Shown here: positions 23,955 through 64,000 of the stretch, piece by piece | Layout: each line of letters starts with the position of its first letter | How positions within the stretch are numbered: position 1 is the stretch's first letter | NCBI GenBank assembly: GCA_016193485.1 | Contig: JACPRZ010000043.1 | Span: 96,944-160,943 of the forward strand | From: Bacteroidota bacterium | GTDB taxonomy: Bacteria; Bacteroidota; Bacteroidia; JACPRZ01 | DNA length: 64,000 nt | Direction of reading: 5' to 3' | Notes under the pieces: model-generated | Database searches by the model: none | What the model was told of the DNA's origin: nothing | What the model saw: the letters and a program-made list of their open reading frames with translations, nothing else | Translations under genes and position numbers: made by a program

Positions 23955-24010
23955 TGAATAGCGAAATTACGAAAATATAGGGCAGTCGGGCACAGAAGAG
24001 GGCGGAATGG

Positions 24011-24166
24011 CCTGCCTGCCGGCAGGCAAGGGCTACATTCCCATTGATCAGGTGTGAATTTTTTTGTTTTCCTGATCTGATGAAGTCCGATACTAGTCCT
24101 GACGTTTACGATCAGGATGCAGACATTTATCGTCTGCATCAGATTCATCGGACCGGCAGGCAGGGA
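24011..24166. repeat. complex palindromic region (cctgcctgccggcaggcaagg; nested insert with gatgcagacatttatcgtctgcatc; tail tcatcggaccggcaggcaggga)
   Basis: Shares gtccgatact(a/c)gtc and tcatcggaccgg(c/t)aggcaggga with 37746-37806, and the gacatttatcgtc core with 1298-1314. Confidence 0.6.
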
Positions 24167-24224
24167 TAAATGATTGCCTATGCTGCTGGAAAAAATACAA
24201 ATGTGATTACAAATGTGTTGGGGT

Positions 24225-26465
24225 TTAACCGATAATTTTCTGCACCAGATTGTCTATGTTTTTCAATTCAGATGCAAGATTGTTTTTAATGGCAACCCGC
24301 AATAGACCTAAGTAAATTGCAGTTAGTTCTTTTTGCGGTGGGTTGTTCTTTAAATATTTTGCCGTTTTGTCGTGTGCCTCTTTGCTAAGTTTTGCCAAAC
24401 GCAAATGTGTTTCATTTTCTTTGTCAAACTTTGGGTAATACATGTCAAGAATTTTTTTATGAACATCTCTTGCACCGAATAAACCTTTTGTCTGGAAATC
24501 TTTCATTAAAAGGTTTGGGGAAGTTGCATTGAGAATAGCAGTCAGATAATATGCTTCGTTTGAACTGTTGGTAACAAATGAATATCCTTTGCTTTCAACA
24601 ATAAATTCCAAATCAAAGTCCTTTCTTTTTACTACAGTTGCGTTTGCATTTTTTGCAGAAGAATTGTAGATCACTAAATAAGGCGCGTTAATATGTTGTT
24701 CAGTTAATCCTCTTTGAAAATCAAGACGGTCATTGCTTGACATGTTTTTTGATTTTGCAGTTTTTTGCAAATCCCAAATTCTTTCAGCATTTTTAAACCA
24801 TTTTGAAGCATGTAAATATCCTTCGCTTCTTAATTCATCTGCCAAGTAGATTTTGATTTCCTTTTTATTTTCATTTTGATTATATTCAACGGTAATAGGA
24901 AGAACAACTAAATCGGGTTTGAATAACGCAAAAGGTAAAATACTTTTTGATAGTGCGGTGCGGAAAAGAAAACGGCTTTCAATTTGACCAGTGAAATCAA
25001 GTCCCTTCCAAGGTTTTTTTGCGACTGCCTGAATGGAATCAGAAGTTTTTATGTTAATAATTCTACCTTCCCAATCAGGCGGATATTCTTGTGTGAGTTG
25101 AATAAAATAAAATGTGCGCGGGACAATAGTAGCGCCTTGTTTGAATAATTTTTTATATGGATTTATGTTGGTTTGTTTCTTTGATTTACGCGGTGAAAAT
25201 GCTGATGACTTTCCCTGTTTTACATAAAACCAATTTTCACTTTTTTCAACAAGATTCGGCATTGCTGATTTAAGATTGCAATTGTGTGAAGGTACATTTC
25301 CACTGAAGCTTATTCCACCGATACCGGTAGCAGGCAATGATTTTTTCCCGTTTGTTTTTTCAGCAAATAAGACACCGCTCGGAATACGGAATAAAGGGGC
25401 GACTTTATTTAAATCCCAAATATTTGTAAGGCGAAATCCTTTTGCTTTTCCGCTTCTCGTATTATCGTGATGGTCTGCGCTGAAAAAACTACGCGGTAAA
25501 ACAAAAGCAATTTTCCCGCTATCATTTAAAAAATAATTGGCACAATGGGATAAAAATATTGCGGCAATTTCAAGGTGCGGGAAGTTTGCTTTTTTGTCGG
25601 GTTTTACAAGATAGATTTCAGCAAGTTTATTTAGTATGTTCTGATATTCTTCGTTCCTGATTGAACTGTATGTGAACCAGGGAGGATTGCCTATGATGTA
25701 ATCAAATTTTCCATGCAAAAAATAGGGTTTGTAAATATTTTGCAAAATGAATTTCCAAATGCTGTCTCTGCCTTTTTCTTTTACAGATTTCAAGCCAAGA
25801 TATATTTTGTAAAATCCATTTGTAATATTGCCATTAAATCCGTTCTTCGGGAATTTTTTACATAAAATATTTTCAAAAGTTTTTTCATCTTCGGCTTTGG
25901 TATGCAATGTTTGATCTGCCAATTCTTCGCACAATTCCAAACCCTCATCAAATAATTCAATTTCTTCCAACACTTGTGTATTGAGTAAAAATACTTCTTT
26001 GTCAATTTTTAATTTGAATTCGCTGCCGAATAAACTTCCAACTCCATCGGGGGCTAATAGCGTGTTTGCAAGGATAATATTTATGTGAATAGGTTTTTTA
26101 GATTTTACAATTTCTTTTCCCAATGAAAGAAGCATTGTTGTTTTTGCAATCTGTACGGAAAGGGGATGAATGTCTATTCCGAAAATATGTTCATTGAGTT
26201 GTTCGGCAGAAGTCCCCGGATGATTTTTTTTTATCCGGTGAATGGCAGCGCGGAGAAACGAACCGCTTCCGCAAGCAGGGTCAAGGATTTTGTCAGTGGG
26301 TTTAAAATTGAATTCTTTTACAATTCTTTCGCATAACCAGTCGGGCGTATAATACTCGCCTAATGCGTGGCGCGTGTCCAAATCAATTAATTCCTGGTAA
26401 CCAGAAGAAAAAATCGTTGTCAACAAAATTGCGGATGTTGTATTTATGAAAAACAGTGCCGTCAA
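24225..26465 (-). CDS. N6-adenine DNA methyltransferase domain plus putative target-recognition region of a Type IIG (MmeI-like) restriction-modification enzyme; C-terminal part of a split gene
   Basis: SAM-binding motif ILDPACGSGSFL and catalytic motif YIIGNPPWFTYS (gamma-class N6-adenine MTase); about 450 aa C-terminal extension; overlaps the upstream ORF by 83 bp in another frame. Confidence 0.75.
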   Translation of the reverse strand: MTALFFINTTSAILLTTIFSSGYQELIDLDTRHALGEYYTPDWLCERIVKEFNFKPTDKILDPACGSGSFLRAAIHRIKKNHPGTSAEQLNEHIFGIDIHPLSVQIAKTTMLLSLGKEIVKSKKPIHINIILANTLLAPDGVGSLFGSEFKLKIDKEVFLLNTQVLEEIELFDEGLELCEELADQTLHTKAEDEKTFENILCKKFPKNGFNGNITNGFYKIYLGLKSVKEKGRDSIWKFILQNIYKPYFLHGKFDYIIGNPPWFTYSSIRNEEYQNILNKLAEIYLVKPDKKANFPHLEIAAIFLSHCANYFLNDSGKIAFVLPRSFFSADHHDNTRSGKAKGFRLTNIWDLNKVAPLFRIPSGVLFAEKTNGKKSLPATGIGGISFSGNVPSHNCNLKSAMPNLVEKSENWFYVKQGKSSAFSPRKSKKQTNINPYKKLFKQGATIVPRTFYFIQLTQEYPPDWEGRIINIKTSDSIQAVAKKPWKGLDFTGQIESRFLFRTALSKSILPFALFKPDLVVLPITVEYNQNENKKEIKIYLADELRSEGYLHASKWFKNAERIWDLQKTAKSKNMSSNDRLDFQRGLTEQHINAPYLVIYNSSAKNANATVVKRKDFDLEFIVESKGYSFVTNSSNEAYYLTAILNATSPNLLMKDFQTKGLFGARDVHKKILDMYYPKFDKENETHLRLAKLSKEAHDKTAKYLKNNPPQKELTAIYLGLLRVAIKNNLASELKNIDNLVQKIIG

Positions 26466-27288
26466 TGATTCCTTTCATTTCGTCATCGCTAATATAATCA
26501 TCATTGCTGACCACCGTATATGCCAACATTTTTGAAAAGACAGAAAGATAGGTATGAATAAGAAAATTATTTTCGCTTGCGTCATAAGAACCGTAAGCAA
26601 TGCTCAAAAACTTTTCCCATTGCGCATAAGAAACCTGAATCTCACCGTATTTTTTTACATCCCGGAAATGGTTTGACATTTCACGATAACAATCAATGAA
26701 AATACCGCTTTGATAGCCGAATGATTCTTCAATTCTCTTGAGGGTCGCTTTTTGTTTTTCTTCTTTGAAAAGAAATCTGTCAATCCAGAAATAAAAATCG
26801 TCTGCGTTATTTTCTGACAGGGTGAAAGAAGCAGAGGCGATTTCGTTCAATTTTAATTTATCTTCCGTGAGTTCTTCCAGTATATCAATTTGTGAAATGT
26901 CGGGAGCAAAAACTTTCCAATTGATAAAGTCGGAAGCAATTAGGGTGTAGTTGTAACCTTCGCCTGAATTAACCTGGCCTAAAAGATAACCCGCCAGTTG
27001 TTCTTTGGCGTGTTTCAAAGTAAATTTCAGGTCGTTTTCAAATTCAATAATGATTTTATTATAAAGGGTGTCGGCACTACCCTTGTGCATTTTGTCCTTT
27101 CGGGGAATATTCAGGACCGTTTTTTCAGCACCGCTTGTAATTTTGTCAATTATTTTTTTTATCTCTTCTTCACCGGAATATAATCGGTTGAGCAGGTCTT
27201 TGAATAATTCTTTTTTGGCGAGTTCTTTATTGGCAGTTTTTATCTTTTGCCGGTATATTTCAATCAGTTCGTTTCTGTTTTGGTCCAT
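26383..27288 (-). CDS. N-terminal (nuclease-like) domain of the Type IIG-like enzyme, separated from the methyltransferase domain by a frameshift
   Basis: 301-aa ORF ending inside the start of 24225-26465; its tail ...NDFFFWLPGIN* joins the downstream frame ...SGYQELID by a 1-nt shift near a T6 run. Confidence 0.55.
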   Translation of the reverse strand: MDQNRNELIEIYRQKIKTANKELAKKELFKDLLNRLYSGEEEIKKIIDKITSGAEKTVLNIPRKDKMHKGSADTLYNKIIIEFENDLKFTLKHAKEQLAGYLLGQVNSGEGYNYTLIASDFINWKVFAPDISQIDILEELTEDKLKLNEIASASFTLSENNADDFYFWIDRFLFKEEKQKATLKRIEESFGYQSGIFIDCYREMSNHFRDVKKYGEIQVSYAQWEKFLSIAYGSYDASENNFLIHTYLSVFSKMLAYTVVSNDDYISDDEMKGIIDGTVFHKYNIRNFVDNDFFFWLPGIN

Positions 27289-27365
27289 TGTAAATTATCT
27301 CTTTAAAACATTGTAAAAATACCATTTATTCCTGTTTGGCGGTTGCGGGCGTAACTGCCGATGAT

Positions 27366-27446
27366 CTGGAGGGAGGTGACATTGAGGGATTTGATGTAGG
27401 GGATTGAGGGGATGAGGGAATGAGGAATTAATAACATGAGGGAATT
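27366..27446. promoter_or_regulatory. purine-rich tgaggga-type short repeats upstream of the Type IIG-like gene
   Basis: ggagggagg, ttgagggat, ttgagggga, atgagggaa, tgaggaatt, atgagggaat within 80 bp; a similar ttgagggagg and G-rich tract recurs at 29680-29840. Confidence 0.35.
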
Positions 27447-27565
27447 AAAGGATCAGAAGGGAACAAGAAAAGATATTTATTGGCATAGAGTTGGTAATTT
27501 TCGTTATGGAAAAAGAAAAGGGATAGTGGAGGATTACGATACAAAGAAAGATTAGGTAAATGGCT

Positions 27566-28282
27566 TTAGTTTGTTAACGTGTGAATCAACAATCTTGCTT
27601 CCGGAATTTCTTTATAGACATTATTAATATTATCTTCGGTTAAATATGTATTAATTGTTTTGAATAACTTACCACTTCTAAATGCTTCAGGAATGGATTC
27701 AGTATCATACACCTTTTTTTTTAATTGAGGGGTTGGGTGCAAATATCTAATATTCTCTTTTGAAATATCAAATATGCAGGATGCGACAAGTATTTCTGAA
27801 CTTGGGAATAATATTAGTGGAATGAAATATGGCAATATTTCGTAATTATAACCTTGTTTAACCATTTCTTCGTAGAATTTTTCAATTGAAAAATAAATTA
27901 ATCTATTAATACTATAAGCCCATTCAGTGAAGTAATTTGAGCGGTCTTTCAGAAGTTTTTCCGTATCAGAATTGATAATTATTATTTCTTTATTTGAAAT
28001 TGCAGAATTTACCCTTAAAGTTTTTTGGTAACAAGCATAATAAATAGCAATCAAATCTTTTAATAATTTATTGGAATCATCAGAAGTAAATGAGTAATTG
28101 GATGAATTTGAAGTGTTATGCAGATATCTTGATAAAGAATTAAAAATATTCAATTGATCCAGGTCAATAAAGCAATTATCGGGTAATTCCTCCTTCCGGT
28201 GTTTTTTAAAAATGGATTGTAAAAATTTTCGGATAACATAAAAGTCACTTAGCCCGTCACGAAGTATTGCAATATTTCGCAT
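27566..28282 (-). CDS. small partner protein of the upstream ATPase; possible RloB/TOPRIM-like effector (unassigned)
   Basis: Start 3 nt after the ATPase stop; N-terminus MRNIAILRDGLSDFYV (hydrophobic strand then D-G-x-S-D) resembles the start of RloB/DUF4276-type partners; later IIIINSDTEKLL acidic patch; AT-rich. Confidence 0.5.
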   Translation of the reverse strand: MRNIAILRDGLSDFYVIRKFLQSIFKKHRKEELPDNCFIDLDQLNIFNSLSRYLHNTSNSSNYSFTSDDSNKLLKDLIAIYYACYQKTLRVNSAISNKEIIIINSDTEKLLKDRSNYFTEWAYSINRLIYFSIEKFYEEMVKQGYNYEILPYFIPLILFPSSEILVASCIFDISKENIRYLHPTPQLKKKVYDTESIPEAFRSGKLFKTINTYLTEDNINNVYKEIPEARLLIHTLTN

Positions 28283-28285
28283 AAA

Positions 28286-29581
28286 TTAAATTTCACCTAA
28301 AACACCATTATAGAAAAGTTCAACTAAATCGAATGGTTTAATAGCAATTATTTTTTTATTATTCACTGTAATTTCCTCACCCTCAACAGTACCCATATTG
28401 ACAAGGGGTTTAATTGCGTCATTTAAGTTTGTAACAAGTGTAATAAAATCTTTTTCTTTCAAATGGAAATTATAAACGGAATCGGGCCGTTGTGAGAATT
28501 CCCGAATTACGGATGGGCTGTGGCTGGTAAAAATAAACTGTGTTTTTTTTGAATTATCAGATGTATCTCTTAACCAATTAAGAAATTCATGAAGATTTTT
28601 TTGATTTATACCATTTTCTATTTCTTCAATCATAATCAATGCGGGAGGTTTGCGAATAGAGCAAAGGAGGGCAATTGCTGCAGCTCTAACTAACCCATCA
28701 GATATTTTATCAGGGTCATAGTAAGGGAAGTTTGAACCACCCATATCAAATTGCCATTTTAAACCATTTTCCTTTAAAACGAAGTTATTGAAATTTTTAA
28801 CGAACCTTTTAAGGTAACCAATAAATCGACTAAAAGTTTCTTGATCCTGCTCTTTAATAAAACAGAGTAATTCCAGAAGGTTTCCCCCTTCCTTACCGAT
28901 TGCGCTTGGTGGATATGGAAAGACATTATTTGTTTTAAAATTACCTAAAAAATCTTTTTTATAACTCGGTACTAGTTTACCTCTAATATAGGAGCCGGAA
29001 AATGCATCTCCTTTTAAAAAGGACGGTTGAAAATTATAATAATAAAAAGTTGCAAGATCGTGGAAAAATAAATTAACTATTTCTTTTTCCCGGAAATGGT
29101 TATTAGATTCATATATTTTTTTTCTTAAAAGTAATTTGGAAGAATTTATATCAAAGCCATTTTCAAATGTTATGTTATTATCAGGAAATAAAAGGGTTAA
29201 TTTCTCGGTGCTTAAAATTAAGCGATCATCTTTTATATTAGGAAAAATTGAGAGGTTATATTCTATATTGTAATTATCTTTACTCCATATGCATCGAAAA
29301 CTAATTGGTTCACCAATTTTGCACATTGAATGTTTATTTGAATTGTATTCGTATGAACGAAGGTCAGAGAAATAATATTCATCTTGACTTTCATGATCAG
29401 TTTCATGAATTGGTTCTTTAACAGGATTATATCGACTTATCAATCTAGAAAAAAAATGCAGACCCCTAAGGAAATTACTTTTACCAGAGTTATTAGAGCC
29501 GATAATTAAAGACAAATCAATGGGTTCAATGGCAGTACATTTATGGGTTCTGTAATTTTTTAGTTCTAATAATTTAAACAT
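28286..29581 (-). CDS. ABC-type (AAA_15/AAA_21, OLD/SMC-like) ATPase, defence-associated family
   Basis: Walker A LIIGSNNSGKSN near N-terminus; D-loop/Walker B ALIMIEEIENGI; H-loop FIFTSHSP; 431 aa; AT-rich. Confidence 0.75.
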   Translation of the reverse strand: MFKLLELKNYRTHKCTAIEPIDLSLIIGSNNSGKSNFLRGLHFFSRLISRYNPVKEPIHETDHESQDEYYFSDLRSYEYNSNKHSMCKIGEPISFRCIWSKDNYNIEYNLSIFPNIKDDRLILSTEKLTLLFPDNNITFENGFDINSSKLLLRKKIYESNNHFREKEIVNLFFHDLATFYYYNFQPSFLKGDAFSGSYIRGKLVPSYKKDFLGNFKTNNVFPYPPSAIGKEGGNLLELLCFIKEQDQETFSRFIGYLKRFVKNFNNFVLKENGLKWQFDMGGSNFPYYDPDKISDGLVRAAAIALLCSIRKPPALIMIEEIENGINQKNLHEFLNWLRDTSDNSKKTQFIFTSHSPSVIREFSQRPDSVYNFHLKEKDFITLVTNLNDAIKPLVNMGTVEGEEITVNNKKIIAIKPFDLVELFYNGVLGEI

Positions 29582-29861
29582 AAGAATAATATTGAGCAGT
29601 TGTTAATTTGGCGGATTTGCAAGTTTTTTTTCGAACCATTAGCGAGCAACAAAGGTAGAAATTCTTCGGGAATGATAAGGTAGTCTTCGGGATTGGGAAT
29701 GTGAAATATTTTTGATGTTGATGTTTAGTCCTGGTCGGGACCGTTGAGGGAGGCAGCCCACCCTGCCCCTTCAAAGGGGGGGGAAGTCGCGAAGGGATGG
29801 AGATAGGCGGGTGAGGTTTGTCGGGTGGAAACACACGATTGCACAAGGGAAGCATTATTCT

Positions 29862-41341: not shown

Positions 41342-42151
41342 ATGAGCAAACCGGTTTTTAATATCAAAATCACATCGCCTGATGCAATGACAGCGGAAGT
41401 GCCTGCGCTTTTTGACTCAGGCGCATATTATACATTAATAAGGGAAGATAAATTGCCTTCAAAAAATTTTTTAATTTACAAAGTGCCGGAAATATTGGAC
41501 ACCGCAACAAAAGGAGGCGCACTCAAAGTAATTGGTTCATTAGAAATAATTATTGAACACCTGGATAAAAAAATAAAGACGCTCGCATTAGTGTCGCCCG
41601 ATATGACAAGGGAAATGATAGTGGGTGCCATAACCATGCAGGAATGGGATATTGTAATAAAAAATAAAAACGGAAGCGCCAAAGTAAATATCGGCAGGGA
41701 TATGCGCGACCCGGAAATTACGGAAGTTTGTTATGTCAGGGAGATTATTACCCCTGAAAATCTGCTTCATGAAGCCGTTTCCCTGCAGTTATTCCTGACA
41801 TATTGTGCCGAATGCGAAGATGATATTGATTACAAGATAAAACTGATTTCATTTATTGAACGCGCCAAACAAATTCATGCACTGCTGAAAGAACAATACA
41901 AAATAAAAAAAGAAAAACAGCCGGCAATTGAAGAAATTCGCGCTTTTTATGATAAGAATTGGCCCGGCTATATGAGACGCGGCTATAATTCCCTTTCGCA
42001 TGCTTTCGGTATTTTCGGCTGGTTGGGCGGAGATATGGAAGGCGGACCTCCCGTTGAAAAATATACTTTATCAATAATGGAAATGCTCAGGCACGACATA
42101 TTATCTCTCTTGCATGAATGGCAAAATAAAAAACGTCATCTGAAAAAATAG
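41342..42151 (+). CDS. retropepsin-like (clan AA) aspartic protease domain protein with unknown C-terminal domain
   Basis: N-terminal VPALFDSGAYYTLI (hydrophobic-hydrophobic-D-S-G-A active-site loop) and IVGAITMQEWDIVI closing strand; about 150-aa extra C-terminal domain. Confidence 0.6.
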   Translation: MSKPVFNIKITSPDAMTAEVPALFDSGAYYTLIREDKLPSKNFLIYKVPEILDTATKGGALKVIGSLEIIIEHLDKKIKTLALVSPDMTREMIVGAITMQEWDIVIKNKNGSAKVNIGRDMRDPEITEVCYVREIITPENLLHEAVSLQLFLTYCAECEDDIDYKIKLISFIERAKQIHALLKEQYKIKKEKQPAIEEIRAFYDKNWPGYMRRGYNSLSHAFGIFGWLGGDMEGGPPVEKYTLSIMEMLRHDILSLLHEWQNKKRHLKK

Positions 42152-42185
42152 TTATTGTAGAATTTTAAACAACATCAGTTTAAAA

Positions 42186-42791
42186 ATGAGGACGCAAAAC
42201 ATAAGGATAGACCCGAACTGGGTAAATAAAAATAAAGACATAGTAGAGAAATATGCCGGCAAATGGATAGCCATTAACCCGGAAAAAGGAATTATCGGAT
42301 TTAGCGATTCCATAAAAAAATTATCAGAACAATGCGATGCATTAAACATTCCGTATATTTTTTATCATGTTCCTTTATATTCTGGTGTTTTAAGATTTAT
42401 CCCCATTTATTTTAAAAGTGCGGTTACCAATAACTGGCGCCCTGTTTATCCTGCTCAACTCCGCAATAATAAAAATATAATAAAAGGATTTTTCTTAATA
42501 GACAGTGGCGCTGATTCCTCATTGATCAGCAAAGAAGCCGGAAAGCAACTCGGTTTTATCAAACAAACAGACGATGCCGTTTTAACTGCCTTTGGAATTG
42601 GGGGAACAGTTGAATACATATTGAAAATGGTTGATTGCACCATTGACGGACATACGCTCAAAATACCGGTTGCATGGATACAAACCGATGATATAGATGA
42701 TATGATAATAGGCAGAGATGTTGTTTTTGATTATTTTGATATTGAATTTAAACAAAAGACAAAAAAAATAGTTTTTAAACCTGTAAAATAA
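42186..42791 (+). CDS. two-domain protein: small N-terminal domain plus C-terminal retropepsin-like aspartic protease
   Basis: C-terminal FFLIDSGADSSLIS (D-S-G-A) and IIGRDVVFDYFDIEF; N-terminal 90 aa (KYAGKWIAINPEKGIIGFSDSIKKL) resembles small antitoxin-like DUF5678-type domains (uncertain). Confidence 0.6.
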   Translation: MRTQNIRIDPNWVNKNKDIVEKYAGKWIAINPEKGIIGFSDSIKKLSEQCDALNIPYIFYHVPLYSGVLRFIPIYFKSAVTNNWRPVYPAQLRNNKNIIKGFFLIDSGADSSLISKEAGKQLGFIKQTDDAVLTAFGIGGTVEYILKMVDCTIDGHTLKIPVAWIQTDDIDDMIIGRDVVFDYFDIEFKQKTKKIVFKPVK

Positions 42792-60922: not shown

Positions 60923-61527
60923 AACTGGAACAGTACGGAATAACCCTTTCAAGAATTACATCCGATGATATTGAATTGGTGAGAAACATGAGAAATGCAC
61001 CGCACGTCAGAAGCACAATGGCTTACCGGAGGTATATTACGAAATCAATGCAAAAAAAGTGGTTTGAACGTGTAAATAATCCGCTGAATTATTATTTGCT
61101 CATCTCGTATCGGAATGAAAAAATCGGAGTTATCAACATTAAAAATATCCGCTTGGATGAAAAATGGGGCGAAGGAGGTATTTTTATTCATGAAAAAAAT
61201 TACTGGAACACTCCTGTTCCGGTGTTGGCTTCACTGTGCCTGCTGAATTTTATTTTTTTTCAGTTAAAAATAACCGATAAATCATTCATAAAAATTTTAA
61301 AAGATAATTTGCCTTCCATCCGTTACAATAAAATACTTGGCTATGTTTTGGTCCCTTATCAGGAAAAAAAGAAGAATCAGCTCTATGTGCTCACTAAAGA
61401 TGCGTACATTGAAAAAACCGAAAAACTCCGTAAAGCCGCAACCATCTTTTCTGGTGATACTGAATTACCGAGATTAACCGGGGTAAAAAGTCCGTTGAAT
61501 CTTGAACAAATGAACATCATGCTTTAA
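60919..61527 (+). CDS. GNAT-like N-acetyltransferase (PseH-like), tentative
   Basis: LSRITSDDIELVRNMRNAPHVRSTM...WFERVNNPLNYYLLISYRNEKIGVINIKNI resembles the PseH/sugar N-acetyltransferase pattern; 4-nt overlap with the GT2 gene. Confidence 0.45.
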   Translation: MKLEQYGITLSRITSDDIELVRNMRNAPHVRSTMAYRRYITKSMQKKWFERVNNPLNYYLLISYRNEKIGVINIKNIRLDEKWGEGGIFIHEKNYWNTPVPVLASLCLLNFIFFQLKITDKSFIKILKDNLPSIRYNKILGYVLVPYQEKKKNQLYVLTKDAYIEKTEKLRKAATIFSGDTELPRLTGVKSPLNLEQMNIML

Positions 61528-61576
61528 AAATATCCTGACGTTCTACCCCTGGGGTATTTATTCACAAGTATAAATA

Positions 61577-62809
61577 TTACTTAAGCACATCTGCCAAACA
61601 CACAGGAATAAGTTTATTATCTTTTATTGTTACGTCAGGACAATTTAAACAATATTCAATTTCGCCATCATAAGTAACATTTGGCCCTTGCTGAAAGATC
61701 ATCGTTTTAAAATTCAGTGTAGAACCTGGTTTTAACAAGTTGGACAGAAATAATATTGTCTTCATTATTGTTAAAGGATTTAAACTGAACAATGCATACA
61801 ACAAACACTTGTAAAATATTTTTTTCTTGTTCCAGATAATATCAAAAGGATACTTTCCCGTTTTTTTTATATGCAACTGATTTCCAACTTTTGCAATATG
61901 TTTAAAATCAATATTCGTATGCAATAGTTTTGTTTTGCAATTTTTTAATTGGATAACAAATGTTAAATAAAATATCCATCTTTTCTCGGATATATTTTTA
62001 GTTGATGGGATATAACCATATGGTAATAAATTAAACTGATGATTTAAATATGCAATAACTTCTTCATTCAAAACAACTTCATTGTCTAAAATTGTAGGTA
62101 CAAGCCGGTTAGGCAGGATTGAGGATTTCGGGATATTGTTTGCAATTAATTCAAAATCCGTACAGCAGGTAACCAATAATGATTGATGCATTTTATTGTT
62201 AAAGAAGCAAGAAATAAATTCGCTAAAATTCGCCAAATCGCTTTTATACAAAGTTATTTCAAGTGCACACCGTATTCCGTTTTTAATAATCTTGTTTGAT
62301 ATATTTGTGCGTAATTCTATCAGATCCTTTCTGTCGAAATTTTCTTTCAAATCCGGTCTTTTTTGGTGCTCATCAATATGAAGAAAAATCTTATTTATTT
62401 TTGATTTTTTATACTCGGCAAGCTTTTTATCAGTTAATGCAAAACCGTTACTTAATACATCAACCAAAATCCCTTTATTTGAAATATATTTAATGACTTC
62501 TGATAATTCCGGGTGTAAAGTGGGTTCTCCGCCAGCAAGTGTTATCAAATGTAAATTTCTCTTTGTTATAATAAAATCAATTTCATTTTTGATGATTTCC
62601 AGAGGTTTTGTATAGTCAGATTGGTCTTTGTAACATGCTTTACAGGAGATATTGCATTTTTGATTTACTTCAATTACGGCATGAGGAATATTTTTCCCGC
62701 TAAATGGCATTTTATAGAGTTTATTTACTGCCACTGTATTTTTAATCTTAGGATTCATAATTATACAATAATAAAACAAACTTATTAATAACTTTATGAC
62801 ATAGGTCAT
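61577..62809 (-). CDS. radical SAM protein with Cys-rich C-terminal (SPASM/twitch-like) region
   Basis: CNISCKACY (CxxxCxxC) followed by a GGEP-type motif (LAGGEPTLHP); C-terminal cysteines (VTCC, EYCLNCPD...PVC); AT-rich. Confidence 0.7.
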   Translation of the reverse strand: MTYVIKLLISLFYYCIIMNPKIKNTVAVNKLYKMPFSGKNIPHAVIEVNQKCNISCKACYKDQSDYTKPLEIIKNEIDFIITKRNLHLITLAGGEPTLHPELSEVIKYISNKGILVDVLSNGFALTDKKLAEYKKSKINKIFLHIDEHQKRPDLKENFDRKDLIELRTNISNKIIKNGIRCALEITLYKSDLANFSEFISCFFNNKMHQSLLVTCCTDFELIANNIPKSSILPNRLVPTILDNEVVLNEEVIAYLNHQFNLLPYGYIPSTKNISEKRWIFYLTFVIQLKNCKTKLLHTNIDFKHIAKVGNQLHIKKTGKYPFDIIWNKKKIFYKCLLYALFSLNPLTIMKTILFLSNLLKPGSTLNFKTMIFQQGPNVTYDGEIEYCLNCPDVTIKDNKLIPVCLADVLK

Positions 62810-62893
62810 GTATTTTGAGTGCCTTTTTATTGAATTTTGGTTTTAAGTAAAATTTGTAGTAAACATTCATATTTTTGGGGGTAACTATATACA

Positions 62894-63343
62894 ATGGACG
62901 ACAATACTTTTAATACTGGAATTTACTTAGCTGAGAAAAGCTTTCAGAATATTTATAAAAAGCATAATTATTTTATGGAAAAGTATTTTAACCATTCCAT
63001 ACCAAAAAAAGGATTATCCACAGGGTTCATTCCATATAATATTGATTTTTCTAAATTAGCGCAACGGAATATTATTTTGACCGGGGATGCCGCTGGCCTT
63101 TGCGATAAAATGTTTGGTCATGGAGTTGATAATGCCATAATATCCGGATATCTTGCCATTGAAAGTATTTGTAATGCTGAAAATACAAATAACACATACC
63201 CGCTTAATGAAATTTACCGTTATAAATTAGGAAAGTATCTTAATAAATCACTTTCTTACGCTATAAAAACCTACGAAACTTTAAAGGAAAATAAAGTAAA
63301 TTATTTGGATTCATTGGAAGCGCTTATAAAACCAGGTGTCTAA
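62894..63343 (+). CDS. truncated FAD-dependent oxidoreductase (geranylgeranyl reductase/halogenase-like C-terminal fragment)
   Basis: IILTGDAAGLCDKMFGHGVDNAIISGYLA is the second FAD-binding motif of this family, but the N-terminal Rossmann part is missing (only 149 aa). Confidence 0.4.
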   Translation: MDDNTFNTGIYLAEKSFQNIYKKHNYFMEKYFNHSIPKKGLSTGFIPYNIDFSKLAQRNIILTGDAAGLCDKMFGHGVDNAIISGYLAIESICNAENTNNTYPLNEIYRYKLGKYLNKSLSYAIKTYETLKENKVNYLDSLEALIKPGV

Positions 63344-63354
63344 TTTGTTCTACT

Positions 63355-64000
63355 ATGAAATTTGCAGATCAATTTGATACAATTTTTTATTCTTCAAAAG
63401 TTAATGAAAATGTCAGGTTGATATTAAACGAGGGTTCTGCCCATGACTTATTTATCAACTATTTTGGAGTTAATTATAATGAAACAGACATTGTTTCGGT
63501 TAAGTTATATTTTTCTTTTTTTGAAAGACCATCCGAAAATATTTTAAGTGAATTTGGCATAAATGAAAAGCACAGAGGGCTTATCTTTACTAACTGGATG
63601 CCTTCAAAAAGGTATGATTTTATCCACCAGGGATTAACCCTTGGGTTAAAATGTTACCTTAAAAATAATGAGATAATAATTAATAAATACATCCATTTTA
63701 GAACAACAGAATTTGCATTAGGGTTTCCGGATGAAATAAAATTACTAAAGGAAGATAGAAACTGCCCCGGCATTTGCCTTGAATTTCATGAGGAGGTAAC
63801 CGAAGTAAAAAAATACTATTATATTACCTCTGCTGAAAATAAATCAAAAATCATTAAAAATTTTGGAATAGAAGCAATTGTTAAACATAACGATATAAGC
63901 ATGATAGAATACACAGAAAGCGAATTAGGGAGAAAAATAAACCTGGCGGTTAACAGGGCGGATACTGTTAAAACTATTTTAATGAAAGAAAATAATAAAT
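63355..64000 (+). CDS. hypothetical protein, 3' end beyond window
   Basis: Open frame from ATG at 63355 to the window end (215 codons, no stop); AT-rich; no motif recognised. Confidence 0.4.
   Translation, partial: MKFADQFDTIFYSSKVNENVRLILNEGSAHDLFINYFGVNYNETDIVSVKLYFSFFERPSENILSEFGINEKHRGLIFTNWMPSKRYDFIHQGLTLGLKCYLKNNEIIINKYIHFRTTEFALGFPDEIKLLKEDRNCPGICLEFHEEVTEVKKYYYITSAENKSKIIKNFGIEAIVKHNDISMIEYTESELGRKINLAVNRADTVKTILMKENNK

Follow-up and report, generated by a model that had tools for sequence, protein, structure and literature searches.

A two-gene ABC ATPase module with an uncatalogued, putatively Toprim-like partner on an AT-rich island of a Bacteroidota genome

Introduction

Few groups of bacterial immune systems are as large, or as poorly resolved, as the pairs of an ABC ATPase and an effector. 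HEC-01 joins an ABC ATPase to a TOPRIM partner and has been described embedded in Hma systems (Payne et al., bioRxiv 10.1101/2024.01.29.577857); its second protein, HEC-01B, is a DUF4276 protein according to the supplementary table of that work. PARIS keeps its ABC ATPase (AriA) and its Toprim-type effector as separate proteins and is often triggered by anti-restriction proteins; OLD and GajA carry both domains on a single polypeptide chain. According to the PADLOC authors' tables, a further arrangement, PDC-M31, consists of FAM_00005 followed by FAM_00304 and is an untested candidate with 102 occurrences; FAM_00005 also heads the HEC-01, PDC-M07, PDC-M25 and PDC-M29 cassettes. Here we describe a pair of an ABC ATPase gene and a small partner gene in a stretch of 64,000 nucleotides (the window) from a Bacteroidota bacterium (GenBank assembly GCA_016193485.1, contig JACPRZ010000043.1, positions 96,944–160,943).

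The architecture of this pair is well known; what is new is that the partner belongs to a family recognised by no library. We predict that the pair is probably a rare form of a common kind of bacterial defence against viruses, and we lean modestly towards reading it as a PARIS/HEC-01/OLD-like module, in which the ABC ATPase would be both the sensor of a cue and the gate of a Toprim-like two-metal nuclease, whose action would arrest the infection or the cell.

Results and discussion

The gene pair and its co-inheritance

The ATPase gene (28286..29581, minus strand; 431 aa, ATG start) encodes an SMC/Rad50/PtuA-like head without a long coiled coil, and the partner gene (27566..28282, minus strand; 238 aa, ATG start) encodes a member of an uncatalogued family that we predict to be a metal-dependent, Toprim-like nuclease. 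An earlier note, made from the sequence alone, had placed the two open reading frames (ORFs) 3 nt apart, and reading the ORFs and their junction confirmed this: on the minus strand the ATPase stop codon, TAA, is followed by TTT and then by the partner's ATG. With homologues that reach E-values of 1e-164 (ATPase) and 1e-87 (partner), the two are real genes rather than chance ORFs. An identical partner protein exists in a Bacteroidetes metagenome-assembled genome (MAG), where it is annotated only as a hypothetical protein.

Conservation of the pair as a unit in other genomes, also raised in the earlier note, was borne out. At all 25 loci fetched (21 of them non-redundant) the gene directly upstream of the partner, in the same orientation, encodes a homologue of the ATPase, and this pairing holds down to 33% identity in the ATPase and 27% in the partner; a locus at a contig edge still retains the C-terminus of the ATPase. 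The junctions range from a 1-nt overlap to a gap of ~60 nt, and no third gene is conserved at the 25 loci. Besides the window, these come from contigs of Desulfobacterales, Deltaproteobacteria, Poribacteria, Chitinophagales, Cytophagales and Bacteroidetes, from Bernardetia, from cyanobacterial loci, from two syntenic loci on contigs of 1.9 and 5.8 Mb, and from a Planktothrix plasmid, and they span Bacteroidota, Desulfobacterota, Poribacteria and Cyanobacteria.

Within this range the close family is patchy. A scan of 100,044 species-representative genomes, made with the closer 26-member partner alignment (the 67-member alignment described below being too divergent), returned 10 loci, all in MAGs and two of them from one MAG. 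So narrow a distribution bears on the idea that the pair is a housekeeping unit of DNA repair or recombination, analogous to RecF (an ABC ATPase) and RecR, which carries a Toprim domain (PMC6755086). The ATPase profile does match RecF, Rad50 and SMC, weakly. Yet a pair found in just those 10 species genomes, with a GC content 15 points below that of its host, in variable genomic contexts and with no RecR or RecF family match above threshold, looks little like a repair function, and we hold this explanation to be extremely improbable.

Two diverged copies of the pair occur, each on its own contig, in a single Deltaproteobacteria MAG, WB1_Bin_16 (L011, 5758-7690; L013, 3229-5183). The copies share their flanks, with LptF/G upstream and a nucleotidyltransferase toxin-antitoxin pair and argininosuccinate lyase downstream, and they probably represent two strains binned together rather than a duplication.

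An intact SMC/Rad50/PtuA-like ATPase

The larger protein had been recognised from its motifs as an AAA_21/AAA_15 ABC ATPase of the type used in two-gene defence systems, and Pfam, PADLOC and Foldseek agree with that assignment. Pfam AAA_21 matches at 87 bits (cut-off 27; E 3.1e-24) and AAA_15 at 59.6 bits (cut-off 32.1; E 5.6e-16). Conservation was read from an alignment of 40 homologues with 36–63% identity. The Walker A motif GSNNSGKS (aa 28–35; 29477..29500, on the minus strand like all motifs below) has G28, N30, G33 and K34 invariant; at least 90% of the homologues keep Q185 and P186 of the Q-loop QPS (aa 185–187; 29021..29029); in the ABC signature S-D-G (aa 294–296; 28694..28702) S294 and D295 reach at least 90% and G296 is invariant. 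The Walker B motif and D-loop, ALIMIEEIENGIN (aa 314–326; 28604..28642), contribute invariant E319, E320, E322, N323 and N326, and the H-loop TSHSP (aa 352–356; 28514..28528) contributes invariant H354 and P356. The Walker A, Walker B/D-loop and H-loop stretches are those that the earlier note had quoted. The protein is an intact SMC/Rad50/PtuA-like ABC ATPase with conserved catalytic motifs, and because the residues of Walker A, Q-loop, signature, Walker B and H-loop are conserved, we predict that it is probably active as an enzyme.

Structure comparison gives the same placement. The closest folds in the PDB to the confident AlphaFold2 (AF2) model of the ATPase (pLDDT 91.2) are PtuA, from Septu and retron systems, and the heads of Rad50 and SMC proteins (Foldseek E ~1e-12, probability 1.00), at 12–15% identity. 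A profile search of PDB sequences agrees with Foldseek, mainly through the N-terminal P-loop region, and its best match is again PtuA. The more specific PADLOC models matched by the ATPase are HEC-01A (E 3.5e-20), mad3, PDC-M07A and PDC-M25A; the NCBIfam model MADS3 scores far below its cut-off.

The partner family

Searches with the 238-aa partner returned zero matches in Pfam, PADLOC, NCBIfam, PHROGs and the PDB sequence profiles, and the Pfam, PADLOC, NCBIfam and PHROGs scans revealed neither an HNH nor a PD-(D/E)xK domain. It had been said of the protein beforehand that it might belong to an unrecognised variant and that these nuclease motifs were not seen in it, and every family library tried bears this out. 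A word-indexed search found 32 clusters at 40–59% identity, and an exhaustive HMM search of 1.84 billion protein representatives delimited a family of ~106 clusters (50% identity), the full-length ones being single-domain proteins of ~220–260 aa and the remainder fragments. Neither fusions nor a bridge to a known family were found among the 106 clusters, and Pfam scans of 26 relatives, and then of 67 full-length members, yielded no family assignment.

The AF2 model of the partner, a confident one (pLDDT 87.7, pTM 0.86), has an alpha/beta core, with strands at residues 4–7, 38–40, 100–106 and 152–159 set among helices, and contains two helical insertions. In an alignment of 67 full-length members, reaching down to 19% identity, conservation concentrates in three motifs and a lysine. 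Motif 1, D9-G10-x-S12-D13, lies just after strand 1 (28244..28258), with D9 kept in 65 of the 67 members, G10 in 66, T or S at position 12 in 62, and D13 in 66. Motif 2, D106-x-E108, stands at the end of strand 3 (27959..27967); D106 occurs in every member, while at position 108 E is found in 65 members and D in the other two. Motif 3, P160-S161-S162-E163, lies where strand 4 ends and a helix begins (27794..27805), with P160 in 67/67, S161 in 66/67 and an acidic residue at position 163 throughout (37 E, 30 D). K188, on a later helix (27719..27721), is again present in all 67. Also conserved are D99 (63/67; the window protein has E there), E228 (65/67) and R230 (61/67). Strands 1, 3 and 4, at their C-terminal ends, and later helices carry this constellation of acidic, serine and lysine residues.

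A putative Toprim-like site in a diverged family

The Toprim domain of BpOLD, as described in a structural study of Class 2 OLD nucleases (PMC6755086), has a two-Mg2+ site with E400 after strand 1, E404 four residues on, and a DxD motif formed by D455 and D457; the site continues with T506-x-E508 at the start of the helix after the last strand and with the catalytic K562 on a later helix. In the partner, D9xxxD13, D106xE108, S161x[E/D]163 and K188 parallel E400/E404, D455/D457, T506/E508 and K562 both in their order and in their local spacing, a likeness of motif order and spacing in sequence, neither statistical nor a spatial superposition. The Toprim domain of P2 Old, moreover, starts LLVEGKTE, an [ED]-G-x-[TS]-[ED] pattern as in the DGxTD of the partner family. 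That the conserved residues share the order and spacing of the OLD metal site is our main argument for regarding the partner as likely a Toprim-like two-metal nuclease, and judged from its sequences the family appears to re-create an OLD-type two-metal site on a diverged scaffold.

Assignment to a described Toprim-type family is another matter, and membership of DUF4276, RloB, DUF4435 or OLD-Toprim cannot be claimed because the profile and profile–profile tests were negative. DUF4276 (PF14103) was rejected with no match in the window protein or its 67 relatives and hhalign probabilities below 1%; HEC-01B, the positive control for this test, matches PF14103 at 2.7e-10. RloB-like (PF13707) was rejected after Pfam-A scans of the window protein and the 67 members gave no match, and PARIS AriB/AbiLii (DUF4435) after the window partner gave no PADLOC match and none of the 67 members matched at E-values up to 10. 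The resemblance to RloB/DUF4276-type partners that the earlier note had seen in two acidic stretches, DGLSD (aa 9–13) and NSDTE (aa 104–108), is therefore upheld in part: both patches are the most conserved residues of the family and stand in the order and spacing of the OLD metal site, but membership of RloB or DUF4276 fell away.

A Foldseek search of the PDB with the partner model returned nothing below E 0.1, and the alpha/beta core could also be read differently. The partner may be a Rossmann/MID-like binder of a ligand or of nucleic-acid ends, or some other metal-dependent hydrolase or phosphatase, serving the ATPase as a sensor or adaptor and possibly acting as an accessory to restriction systems nearby. 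We think this fairly unlikely. The six conserved acidic positions (D9, D13, D99, D106, E108 and 163) suggest cation binding and not a phosphate-binding MID pocket; the model has four strands where receiver domains have five; the micro-spacing of the conserved residues (xxx, x, x) is exactly that of the OLD site; and ABC ATPases of the window's clade are typically paired with nucleases (bioRxiv 10.1101/2024.01.29.577857). A bolder version, in which the partner is a new fold-level Rossmann/MID-like variant, coupled to the ABC ATPase, whose metal site would detect a small-molecule signal or the end of a nucleic acid, seems to us distinctly unlikely. Were such a Rossmann/MID-like reading true, ABC-ATPase defence would gain a sensing or effector principle so far undescribed in such systems, one that might guard restriction systems disabled by phage.

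Comparison with described and candidate systems

Like HEC-01, the pair is a two-gene cassette in which an AAA_21/AAA_15 ABC ATPase precedes a small protein of ~190–240 aa, Toprim-type in HEC-01 and predicted to be so here, and the window ATPase matches HEC-01A models, as noted above. HEC-01 occurs embedded in Hma systems, and a homologous pair on a Planktothrix plasmid is embedded in what we take to be one. HEC-01 differs in its partner: the window protein and the 67 members fail the DUF4276 model, and the window partner is longer and carries the two helical insertions.

PDC-M31, for which we found no main-text discussion in the literature searched, likewise has an ATPase followed by a B protein of ~233–241 aa. 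Under a permissive threshold in PADLOC, 26 of the 67 family members weakly match PDC-M31B (best E 5e-4), always N-terminus to N-terminus, with their first 25–35 residues aligned to the start of the 233–241-position profile. Membership was rejected, since the matches to the B model are not full length and the window protein has none; PDC-M31A, too, is missing from the ATPase's 25 best PADLOC models. From these alignments we read the family as a sister of PDC-M31B that shares its predicted N-terminal catalytic motif, not as a member, and PDC-M31B would be the closest catalogued relative of the partner, through a weak and purely N-terminal likeness.

The label 'PARIS-like', which had been suggested for the pair, fits in architecture only, in that the pair, like PARIS, has a separate ABC ATPase and an effector predicted to be of Toprim type. 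Two PADLOC AriA profiles do match the ATPase, but they have 304 and 373 positions, compared with 304 for Pfam AAA_21 and 374 for AAA_15, and nearly the same positions are matched; we treat these matches as generic because both profile lengths and matched positions nearly equal those of the Pfam models. No AriA chain occurs among the 44 solved sequences matched by the ATPase profile, the window partner has no DUF4435/AriB match, and no phage or satellite carriage was found for the pair.

OLD and GajA combine an ABC ATPase with Toprim, as the pair is predicted to do, and the partner residues follow the order and spacing of the BpOLD two-metal site, the lysine included. They differ in the fusion of the two domains, and the window partner has neither a profile nor a fold match to OLD Toprim; nor is a GajB-like helicase, as in Gabija, present at the window locus. 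Septu and retron PtuA offer the closest solved fold to the ATPase as well as its best PDB profile match, but at low identity, and PtuB is an HNH nuclease whereas the window partner has no HNH. The RloA/RloB genes of Campylobacter Type I loci encode an ATPase and a small Toprim-like protein in or next to restriction-modification (RM) loci. Compared by Pfam model only, they part from the pair at the partner: Pfam, RloB included, matches neither the window protein nor the 67 members.

Genomic context of the homologous pairs

Restriction-type systems are touched by five of the 21 non-redundant loci (a raw count), and at two of these the pair is operonic or embedded. One of the five is the window itself, with the Type IIG gene described below. 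At L019 the pair follows a complete Type I operon, its start 39 nt from hsdR; at L014 it adjoins a Type IIG RM gene coding for a 1270-aa enzyme with fused HSDR_N, N6_Mtase and Methylase_S domains; and at L015 its neighbours are a Type II RM system, with a DpnII/BanI-like endonuclease and an N6_N4 methylase, and another AAA_21 gene. On the Planktothrix plasmid (L018) the pair lies between a DUF3883 gene and genes for DUF1156 and DUF499 proteins, presumably an Hma system with the pair embedded in it, going by PADLOC's definition of Hma (helicase, methylase and ATPase). The association of the pair with restriction systems is suggestive.

Elsewhere the pair has entered other kinds of neighbourhood. 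In the syntenic loci L034 (9001-10971) and L035 (9001-11112), which lie on the large contigs of 1.9 and 5.8 Mb, it stands between a solute-binding gene and two permease genes, inside an ABC sugar-transporter operon; the L035 partner is broken into ORFs of 98 and 123 aa and is a decaying copy. The ABC-transporter role that this context suggests was rejected: the ATPase is of the SMC/Rad50 class and not ABC_tran, and the context is limited to these two syntenic loci. Other insertion sites lie after clpA or ileS-like genes, and toxin-antitoxin genes are neighbours at further loci (MNT/HEPN, PemK, PIN and HicAB). Insertion sites as varied as these are the behaviour of an autonomous mobile cassette.

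Such behaviour invites the reading that the pair is a selfish, toxin-antitoxin-like addiction cassette, in which a nuclease toxin restrained by the ATPase would maintain and propagate the cassette through post-segregational killing, without a dedicated anti-phage role. The compact, tightly coupled two-gene unit, its low GC and its patchy phylogenetic spread would all fit, as would the single insertions in housekeeping operons, the frequent toxin-antitoxin neighbours, the decaying copy in L035 and the finding that HEC-01 showed no defence. We nevertheless consider it unlikely, given that the pair recurs in or beside restriction-type systems, with the Hma embedding and the operonic placement after hsdR among the cases; moreover, addiction and defence are compatible, as PARIS-type systems behave like toxin-antitoxin pairs.

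Three loci merit further mention. At L012 (15-4259) the pair stands between ORFs that resemble NuoK and NuoL, their N-termini having been judged by eye only; if these calls hold, it would be an insertion in an NADH dehydrogenase operon. Extra AAA_21/AAA_15 ATPase genes are found a few kilobases from the pair at L015 (2174-3514) and L016 (7753-8094), and at L016 a 113-aa fragment lies directly downstream of the pair, which suggests that ATPase-based modules accumulate at the same sites.

The AT-rich island and the neighbouring Type IIG gene

In the window, the pair shares an AT-rich island with an RM gene (24000..29700), where GC is 0.32–0.38 per kilobase compared with ~0.45–0.48 on both sides. 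The ATPase gene has a GC of 0.302 and the partner gene one of 0.282; the values are 0.35–0.36 in the restriction gene and 0.44–0.47 in the flanking host genes (0.47 and 0.44 for those compared with the pair), in keeping with the earlier note's remark that both genes are visibly AT-rich. The pair is horizontally acquired, AT-rich foreign DNA. Neither direct or inverted repeats nor tRNA genes that might mark mobile-element borders were found flanking the island, and promoter and terminator signals sought around the pair occurred at chance level only; the minus-strand sequence TACCTTTG (29650-29657), which fits TAnnTTTG ~70 nt ahead of the ATPase start, is of a kind so often expected by chance that it was given no weight. 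Upstream of the ATPase a 280-nt spacer (29582-29861) has a host-like GC of 0.46, so that the upstream border of the island lies close to the ATPase start. A proline-rich 93-aa ORF in this spacer (29574-29855) is probably spurious.

The RM gene, which the earlier note had called Type IIG-like, is confirmed as such by PADLOC. It adjoins the pair 277 nt downstream on the same strand (24225..27288, minus strand) and is split by a frameshift at a T6 run (26408-26413). REase_MTase_IIG matches both pieces: an ORF of 746 aa (E 2.5e-61, profile positions 356–712) and an N-terminal ORF of 301 aa (E 2.4e-07, positions 25–315). The gene also matches the Eco57I and N6_Mtase models. Deleting one T from the run would rejoin the two ORFs; the frameshift could reflect a pseudogene, phase variation or a sequencing or assembly error.

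Two other stretches of the window drew attention. Within an AT-rich stretch, two neighbouring ORFs (269 and 201 aa; 41342-42791, plus strand) both contain a D-S-G-A motif reminiscent of retropepsins (FDSGAYY and IDSGADSS). The region 61000-64000 has the lowest GC of the window (0.29–0.32); ORFs with the look of genes for a glycosyltransferase, an acetyltransferase and a radical-SAM protein (CNISCKAC) probably make it a surface-polysaccharide locus.

A predicted sensor–nuclease module and its significance

Taken as a PARIS/HEC-01/OLD-like module, the pair would be a self-contained, horizontally acquired unit of two genes, with the ABC ATPase as sensor or regulator and a divergent Toprim-like two-metal nuclease as effector. 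By analogy with PARIS, HEC-01 and OLD/Gabija, we infer that the two proteins would form a complex in which an oligomer of the ATPase holds or gates the nuclease. A phage cue would then shift the nucleotide state of the ATPase, and the freed or activated nuclease would cut nucleic acid (DNA or tRNA), stopping the infection or the cell. The cue may be anti-restriction activity, a guess that is reasonable because restriction-system neighbourhoods recur around the pair.

A number of results weigh against this. Statistical homology of the partner to Toprim families was not found: Toprim-clan Pfam models run on the 67 members gave a single OLD-like_TOPRIM match, at E 0.068, and hhalign comparisons of the 67-member alignment gave probabilities of 0.4% with the single HEC-01B sequence, 0.4% with a 32-sequence DUF4276 alignment and 0.1% with P2 Old and five relatives (in local, low-mact and global modes), although the low diversity of these templates (Neff 1.6–2.8) makes them weak negative evidence only. 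The likeness to PDC-M31B extends over only some 30 N-terminal residues, and at E-values up to 10 that model does not match the window protein. No homologues were found in phage and IMG/VR collections; just five of the 21 loci adjoin restriction systems, and many lie among housekeeping genes. Finally, HEC-01, a related system, did not protect E. coli when assayed (bioRxiv 10.1101/2024.01.29.577857).

The gain is incremental and not conceptual, a useful addition that would not surprise a specialist. Because Pfam, NCBIfam, PADLOC and PHROGs miss the partner family, current defence-finding tools would not report the pair. If nuclease-based defence is its true function, the 67-member profile would widen the annotation of defence genes in Bacteroidota, Desulfobacterota, Cyanobacteria and Poribacteria, and the pair would provide a further case for studying the coupling of restriction systems with back-up abortive modules.

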